From a virus (lineage: Duplodnaviria > Heunggongvirae > Uroviricota > Caudoviricetes), in the IMG/VR virus record IMGVR_UViG_2531839665_000007, positions 1 through 22,029 of that record: a DNA stretch of 22,029 nt; one strand, written 5' to 3'. Shown here one piece after another: positions 19,278 through 20,064 of the stretch (position 1 is the first letter of the stretch; each line of letters begins with the position of its first letter). The position numbers and the translations under genes are program-made. The notes beneath the pieces were generated by a model that had not been told where the DNA came from, searched no databases, and saw nothing but the letters and a program-made list of their open reading frames with translations.

Positions 19278-20064
19278 ATGAGTACAGCACTCGCAACGCT
19301 GGCAGGGAAGCTGGCTGAACGTGTCGGCATGGATTCTGTCGACCCACAGGAACTGATCACCACTCTTCGCCAGACGGCATTTAAAGGTGATGCCAGCGAT
19401 GCGCAGTTCATCGCATTGTTGATCGTCGCCAACCAGTACGGCCTTAATCCGTGGACGAAAGAAATTTACGCCTTCCCTGATAAGCAGAACGGCATTGTTC
19501 CGGTGGTGGGCGTTGATGGCTGGTCCCGCATCATCAATGAAAACCAGCAGTTTGATGGCATGGACTTTGAGCAGGACAATGAATCCTGTACATGCCGGAT
19601 TTACCGCAAGGACCGTAATCATCCGATCTGCGTTACCGAATGGATGGATGAATGCCGCCGCGAACCATTCAAAACCCGCGAAGGCAGAGAAATCACGGGG
19701 CCGTGGCAGTCGCATCCTAAACGGATGTTACGGCATAAAAGCTATGATTCAGTGTGCCCGTCTGGCCTTCGGATTTGCTGGTATCTATGACAAGGATGAA
19801 GCCGAGCGCATTGTCGAAAATACTGCATACACTGCAGAACGCCAGCCGGAACGCGACATCACTCCGGTTAACGATGAAACCATGCAGGAGATTAACACTC
19901 TGCTAATCGCCCTGGATAAAACATGGGATGACGACTTATTGCCGCTCTGTTCCCAGATATTTCGCCGCGACATTCGCGCATCGTCAGAACTGACACAGGC
20001 CGAAGCAGTGAAAGCTCTTGGATTCCTGAAACAGAAAGCCACTGAGCAGAAGGTGGCAGCATGA
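19278..20064 (+). pseudogene. bet: bet (Red-beta single-strand annealing protein), frameshifted
   Basis: Residues up to ..PKRMLRHK match lambda Bet (ORF 19278-19790); the rest ..AMIQCARLAFGFAG...KVAA is in the +1 frame (ORF 19495-20064); shift near cataaaagctatg, about 19735-19750. Confidence 0.8.

Follow-up and report, generated by a model that had tools for sequence, protein, structure and literature searches.

The Red operon of phage lambda is located in the pL early region, where the genes follow the order N, ral, cIII, kil, gam, bet, and exo, and the stop codon of bet overlaps the start of exo. Gam is an inhibitor of RecBCD, and pL transcripts that have been antiterminated by N resist Rho polarity. 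Of all parts of the lambdoid prophages, the gam-bet-exo module is the best conserved. The 22,029-nt stretch of DNA that was analyzed here, referred to as the window, resembles lambda in its gene order, with gam, bet, and an intact exo downstream of N, cIII, and kil, and in the overlap of bet with exo. Once repaired, the proteins of the window are identical to common E. coli prophage alleles. Unlike in lambda, both bet and gam as written are split by 1-bp indels, and the change in bet was found in no other copy searched.

Other described systems can also be compared with this locus. The defective lambdoid prophages of EHEC, for example those of the Sakai prophage pool, carry IS insertions, deletions, and frameshifts. 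The window shares with them an STEC host, an IS in a morphogenesis gene (terL), and apparently inactivated early genes. However, the rest of its 21-kb region is intact, and its lesions, all of them single-base changes, are unshared and come with no further indication of age. Spurious homopolymer frameshifts are known from 454, Ion Torrent, and nanopore assemblies, especially in repeats that cannot be polished. In the window, too, the 1-bp indels are private and confined to homopolymers, and they lie in multi-copy DNA and at a contig end, but the long runs are correct and one of the changes would be the over-call of a 3-mer. Finally, prfB-type +1 frameshifting and dnaX-type A-run slippage involve sites that are similar to the A run in bet, which could allow +1 re-pairing of tRNA-Lys. 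The bet site differs in being unconserved and only 4 nt long, in having neither a rare nor a stop codon, and in that no upstream stimulator resembling a Shine-Dalgarno (SD) sequence was identified.

Source contig and prophage layout

The window is the whole of contig AFAA02000009.1 of the draft GCA_000194495.2, a contig-level assembly of E. coli 4.0967 from about 2011-12. From 8978 to 22029, contig and window agree with 100% identity. The AFAA strain is a Stx2-positive STEC of serotype O145:H2 and was submitted by the J. Craig Venter Institute (JCVI) (PMC3359367). A literature search on its sequencing technology returned the serotype, Stx2 status, and submitter only, the platform is not stated in PMC3359367, and no paper citing the accession was found. 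Being Stx2-positive, strain 4.0967 carries its Stx2 phage in addition to this prophage and hence a minimum of one more lambdoid copy of gam-bet-exo. A bet of the VT2-Sakai type shares 98.5% identity with that of the window.

The annotation of near-identical prophages and the mapping of each gene indicate that the window covers one half of a lambdoid prophage, with the early (pL/pR) and late-regulatory regions. The genes are arranged in the order terS, Rha, lysis genes, Q, nin region, O/P, cII, a cro-like gene, and cI, followed by a two-gene cassette, N, ral, cIII, kil, gam, bet, exo, and small ORFs. The closest prophages in finished genomes, JB2, C7, C3, and OkiPb01675, are 99.5-99.6% identical to it across positions 332-21739. 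The window itself was not found in finished E. coli genomes or phage records, where the top match is 99.6% identical over 97% of the window. The 56 substitutions relative to JB2 are concentrated in a small number of allele patches, and the alignment has four gap openings. The gaps are a 24-bp difference in an AAATAG array, two deletions in gam, and an insertion in bet. Besides the three in gam and bet, no further 1-bp indels relative to JB2 were present across about 20.8 kb. All 36 remaining genes, mapped from the relative, are full length and free of stops, which makes 36 intact genes of 38. The genomes of the relatives each contain two to four copies of bet (up to five over all genomes) and about six copies of the IS66 segment.

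The features of the Red region and of the left end of the contig are given in Table 1. At the left end, the tnpA gene of the IS66-family element has a private deletion of its own (T5 to T4 at 164-167). It is 167 nt from the contig end and shifts the frame after codon 12. The prophage would be defective in packaging, unless the junction between IS66 and terL is an artifact of contig joining.

Table 1. Positions in the window of the features discussed in the text
Feature	Coordinates	Strand	Remarks
IS66-family element end (5' part of tnpA)	1-335	-	At contig end
terL, terminase large-subunit gene, first ~131 nt	332-462	-	Interrupted by IS66-family element
gam	18858-19272	+	Long form from 18858; GamS form from ATG 18978
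GGG run in gam	19143-19145	+	1-bp deletion; GGGG in relatives by alignment
AAAAA run in gam	19151-19155	+	1-bp deletion; AAAAAA in relatives by alignment
bet, 5' part	19278-19790	+	170 aa: 154 native Red-beta residues and a 16-aa out-of-frame tail, SYDSVCPSGLRICWYL
Allele patch in bet/exo	19718-20177	+	460 bp; 2015C-3163-type SNPs within JB2-type backbone
AAAA run in bet	19737-19740	+	Private insertion of one A; AAA in every comparator
bet, 3' part	19744-20064	+	+1 frame; native residues 156-261 from in-frame ATG 19744
exo, lambda exonuclease (YqaJ domain)	20061-20741	+	226 aa, intact; identical to WP_000186788.1

The window has several other features. A perfect AAATAG hexamer array (10.8 units) is located at 8146-8210, between genes and upstream of a 590-aa ORF. 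The array exceeds that of JB2 by 4 units and that of OkiPb01675 by about 2, a VNTR-like length polymorphism. The 590-aa ORF (8526-10298, + strand) lies in the nin region, is oriented against the neighboring genes, and is moron-like. It has no Pfam or PADLOC match, is 100% conserved in related prophages, and is annotated there as hypothetical. The two-gene cassette (15639-16945, + strand) is directly 3' of cI, at the position of lambda rexAB. Its 180-aa protein has weak matches to DUF6978 and PDC-M24A, and its 258-aa DUF1828 protein matches the PADLOC candidate PDC-M24B (E ~6e-7). The cassette may encode a defense or exclusion pair of the prophage.

Anatomy of the bet and gam lesions

The initial annotation had reported a frameshift in bet at an A run, and this was confirmed. 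Positions 19730-19760 read acggcatAAAAgctatgattcagtgtgcccg. When bet was aligned to the closest prophages, exactly one surplus A was found (AAA to AAAA), and the remainder of the gene is in the +1 frame. The 5' ORF begins at ATG 19278, stops at 19788-19790, and was deposited as EII35889.1. Its native part had been placed at residues 1-153. The split stands and the boundary has to be moved, as the product is native through H153 and K154 and departs from Bet at residue 155 (A to S). The C-terminal part of Bet (AMIQCARLAFG...QKVAA) is found in the +1 frame. Its stop codon, TGA 20062-20064, overlaps the ATG of exo (ATGA at 20061-20064). When the sequence was read for an internal restart, no SD-like sequence was seen upstream of ATG 19744.

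The frameshift falls within the annealing domain. The Pfam RecT profile (PF03837) matches residues 24-154 of the frame-0 product, corresponding to profile positions 5-164 of 198, and the two diverge beyond this point. The N-terminal annealing domain (about residues 1-177) is not complete in any one frame, and the C-terminal domain that binds Exo and SSB (about residues 182-261) is detached from it in the +1 frame. The repaired Bet matches PDB 7UJL, the annealing domain on DNA, over residues 1-178. It also matches the C-terminal domain in 8TFU over residues 182-261 and in 6M9K over residues 194-260. In the latter structure, this domain is bound to lambda Exo. Judging from the sequence, Bet as written would lack ~24 residues at the end of the annealing domain, as well as the entire C-terminal domain, and should be inactive.

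The gam gene had also been described as broken. This was borne out, and the damage comes from not one but two 1-bp deletions (net -2), which are separated by a few bases. The frame is broken after residue 96 of the long form and as written stops at 19175, with loss of long-form residues 97-138. The exo gene proved to be intact, as had been claimed, and it is preceded by an SD-like AAGGTGG.

Both genes can be restored by undoing the indels. Removal of one A gives a 261-aa Bet that is identical (261/261) to WP_000100847.1, a protein that is encoded twice in strain 2015C-3163. Restoration of one G and one A gives a 98-aa GamS that is identical (98/98) to WP_000995439.1. There are no private amino-acid changes in the repaired proteins. 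The sole private substitution in gam and bet, A to G at 19206, is read in the repaired frame as synonymous (GCA to GCG). The lesions, if real, would be extremely young.

Distribution of the indels and the allele patch

In total, the contig contains four private 1-bp indels (two in gam, one in bet, and one in IS66 tnpA). All of them are within homopolymers and are absent from all close relatives. Of the four, the G deletion was present by itself in one of the finished E. coli genomes compared, and the others in none. The comparison set of 5,426 finished E. coli genomes holds 4,664 bet copies, and the extra A was present in none of these and in none of the 191 phage records. A 61-nt probe over the site found 420 genomes with the same flanking alleles, all of which have AAA; none matched the probe at 99% or above. 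An exact-pattern scan for the AAAA junction returned nothing from IMG/VR, GTDB species representatives, or JGI/ENA metagenome contigs. Among ~15 billion proteins, the 170-aa Bet product is encoded by one contig only, AFAA02000009.1. In an even sample of the ranked bet copies from finished genomes, all 57 full-length copies are 786 nt with no net indel, while truncated copies made up 2 of the 60 sampled.

The two gam deletions together were likewise present in none of the 5,426 finished E. coli genomes. The G deletion alone was found in one, E. coli E29 (NZ_CM143894.1), where gam is annotated as frameshifted. In E29, the change from GGGG to GGG stands on a different gam allele (NZ_CM143894.1 locus, 1361-1656). 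The sharing of this deletion suggests that the GGGG site is a hot spot for recurrent miscalls or slippage.

The double deletion does occur in other assemblies. The 65-aa truncated GamS product was found in only two other contigs of the 15-billion-protein collection. Exact-pattern scans for the double deletion add a third, a low-coverage metagenome contig, and found nothing in genome representatives or viral contigs. The three contigs have different gam and bet alleles and 5-14 1-bp indels per 1.4-2.5 kb. There are 5 gap openings in 1.37 kb of a Logan contig (ERR10499664), 7 in 1.98 kb of a gut-metagenome contig with a coverage of 1.58, and 13 in 2.45 kb of contig_1095 of ENA ERZ1714338 relative to the best finished reference. 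The last of these include deletions of the CCWGG type, which is typical of nanopore consensus. Thus, the double deletion has been produced by data that under-call homopolymers and never by accurate genomes, and this is the strongest single pointer to an artifact. The bet insertion is absent from all three error-rich contigs. Recurrence of the same miscall therefore holds for the gam double deletion alone, which counts against an artifact in bet.

The many 1-bp deletions of contig_1095 at CCWGG (Dcm) motifs and homopolymers split O, P, bet, and exo. This contig is a clear example of long-read consensus errors leading to false pseudogenes in public protein collections.

The indels in gam and bet are clustered. 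All three fall inside 595 bp of a 21.4-kb alignment (p ~0.002 under uniform placement), and the 48 runs of at least 6 bases in the contig all agree with the relatives. Together, these observations indicate that uniform platform error is insufficient and that something local is at work. General homopolymer error over the whole contig was rejected as the sole model for the same reasons. There is also a change of allele in this region. The bet gene of the window is of the JB2 type up to 19640, carries the allele of other prophages within the 460-bp patch (Table 1), and is then identical to JB2 again. The bet insertion is located 20 nt inside the left edge of this patch. The patch can be explained either by gene conversion between prophages or by a chimeric consensus.

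Candidate explanations and what they would mean

The frameshift had been thought to reflect either the decay of a cryptic prophage or an assembly artifact. The second of these is favored. The indels are private, lie in homopolymers of multi-copy DNA in a draft, and once corrected give proteins that are 100% identical to known ones. The first finds no support here as a general process. Decay should leave lesions spread over the prophage; terL is interrupted by IS66, the structural region lies outside the contig, and nearly all genes of the 21 kb (36 of 38) are intact. For this region, broad decay was set aside as unsupported, and the lack of wider decay counts for an artifact.

It is probable that the indels in bet, gam, and IS66 tnpA are consensus errors in multi-copy prophage and IS DNA. 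The bet frameshift would most likely be absent from the bacterium, and would be a miscall of homopolymer length in the draft consensus. The two gam deletions and the tnpA deletion would have arisen likewise. All four indels fall in DNA of which Shiga-toxin E. coli has several near-identical copies. Reads from paralogous copies may have been pooled, and polishing may have failed in the gam-bet-exo module and in the IS at the contig end. A consensus of pooled paralogs would yield the 460-bp patch as well as local indel errors. The JCVI drafts of the AFAA period were presumably largely 454-based.

There are also observations that weigh against consensus errors. A run of three A and a run of four G were altered while the 48 long runs were spared, and a homopolymer-prone platform should favor the long runs. 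Other parts of the contig that are repeated among prophages are free of indels. The location of three indels within 595 bp is also consistent with a local biological cause, and the patch is explained equally well by natural gene conversion.

Less likely, although it deserves to be considered, is that the indels are real and that gam and bet were lost to slippage very recently. They would represent early pseudogenization in a prophage that had already been crippled in terL by IS66, within a poly-lysogenic STEC. The frameshifts are present in the deposited sequence and are annotated as such, and terL is disrupted in the same prophage. Homopolymers are favored by slippage, and the E29 deletion and the truncated bet copies (2 of 60) indicate that such changes can be found in finished genomes. 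The clustering in adjacent genes could fit with lost selection on, or selection against, the Red/Gam module. However, the changes are shared by no other genome, are not accompanied by any private amino-acid change in gam or bet, and are found where 36 of 38 genes are intact. No net indel was present in the 57 finished bet copies. The two gam deletions are only a few nucleotides apart, which makes them hard to explain as independent mutations, and the pair recurs only in error-ridden assemblies. Nothing specifically requires real mutations to be assumed.

Real mutations could even be adaptive, which appears improbable. Selection would have silenced Gam and Bet of one prophage and kept Exo in a poly-lysogenic Shiga-toxin E. 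coli. The benefit could possibly be the curbing of toxic leakage or of Red recombination between prophages. This would account for all three hits falling in a pair of adjacent genes while the other 36 genes have none.

It is similarly doubtful that the gam and bet lesions were gene-converted from a second, already decayed prophage of the same strain, in which case they would be real, older, and shared with a paralog. Two allele types are combined in the window bet, with the patch beginning just before the insertion, in keeping with this origin. However, the insertion is missing throughout from the donor-type allele in finished genomes (L003, L009, and about 420 genomes carrying the GCT variant), and the gam deletions are located outside the patch in JB2-type sequence. 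A programmed frameshift, in which P-site tRNA-Lys slips by +1 on AAA-A, or else transcriptional slippage, could give low-level full-length Bet, and a +1 shift on cat-AAA-Agc would restore the exact native H-K-A-M-I-Q. It was rejected as very unlikely because the configuration is not conserved in any of the homologous copies or phage records, the 4-nt run is far short of the lengths known for transcriptional slippage, the next zero-frame codon (AGC) is neither rare nor a stop and so provides no known +1 stimulator, and gam is broken too without a comparable rescue.

If the lesions were real, Exo would probably still be made, given its own SD-like sequence and the Rho resistance of pL transcripts. 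There would be no Bet and thus no Red recombination from this prophage copy, and Gam would not be supplied by it either. Other, intact copies are almost certainly present in an STEC that has several lambdoid prophages, which would keep the phenotypic effect small. The bet locus is a sequencing or assembly error, or else a trivial and unshared pseudogene in a well-known operon, and mechanistically it is nothing new. Its value lies mainly in the warning that it gives. When a conserved prophage module shows frameshifted pseudogenes in an old or unpolished draft, these should not be taken as decay, or as loss of Red function, without the support of reads.
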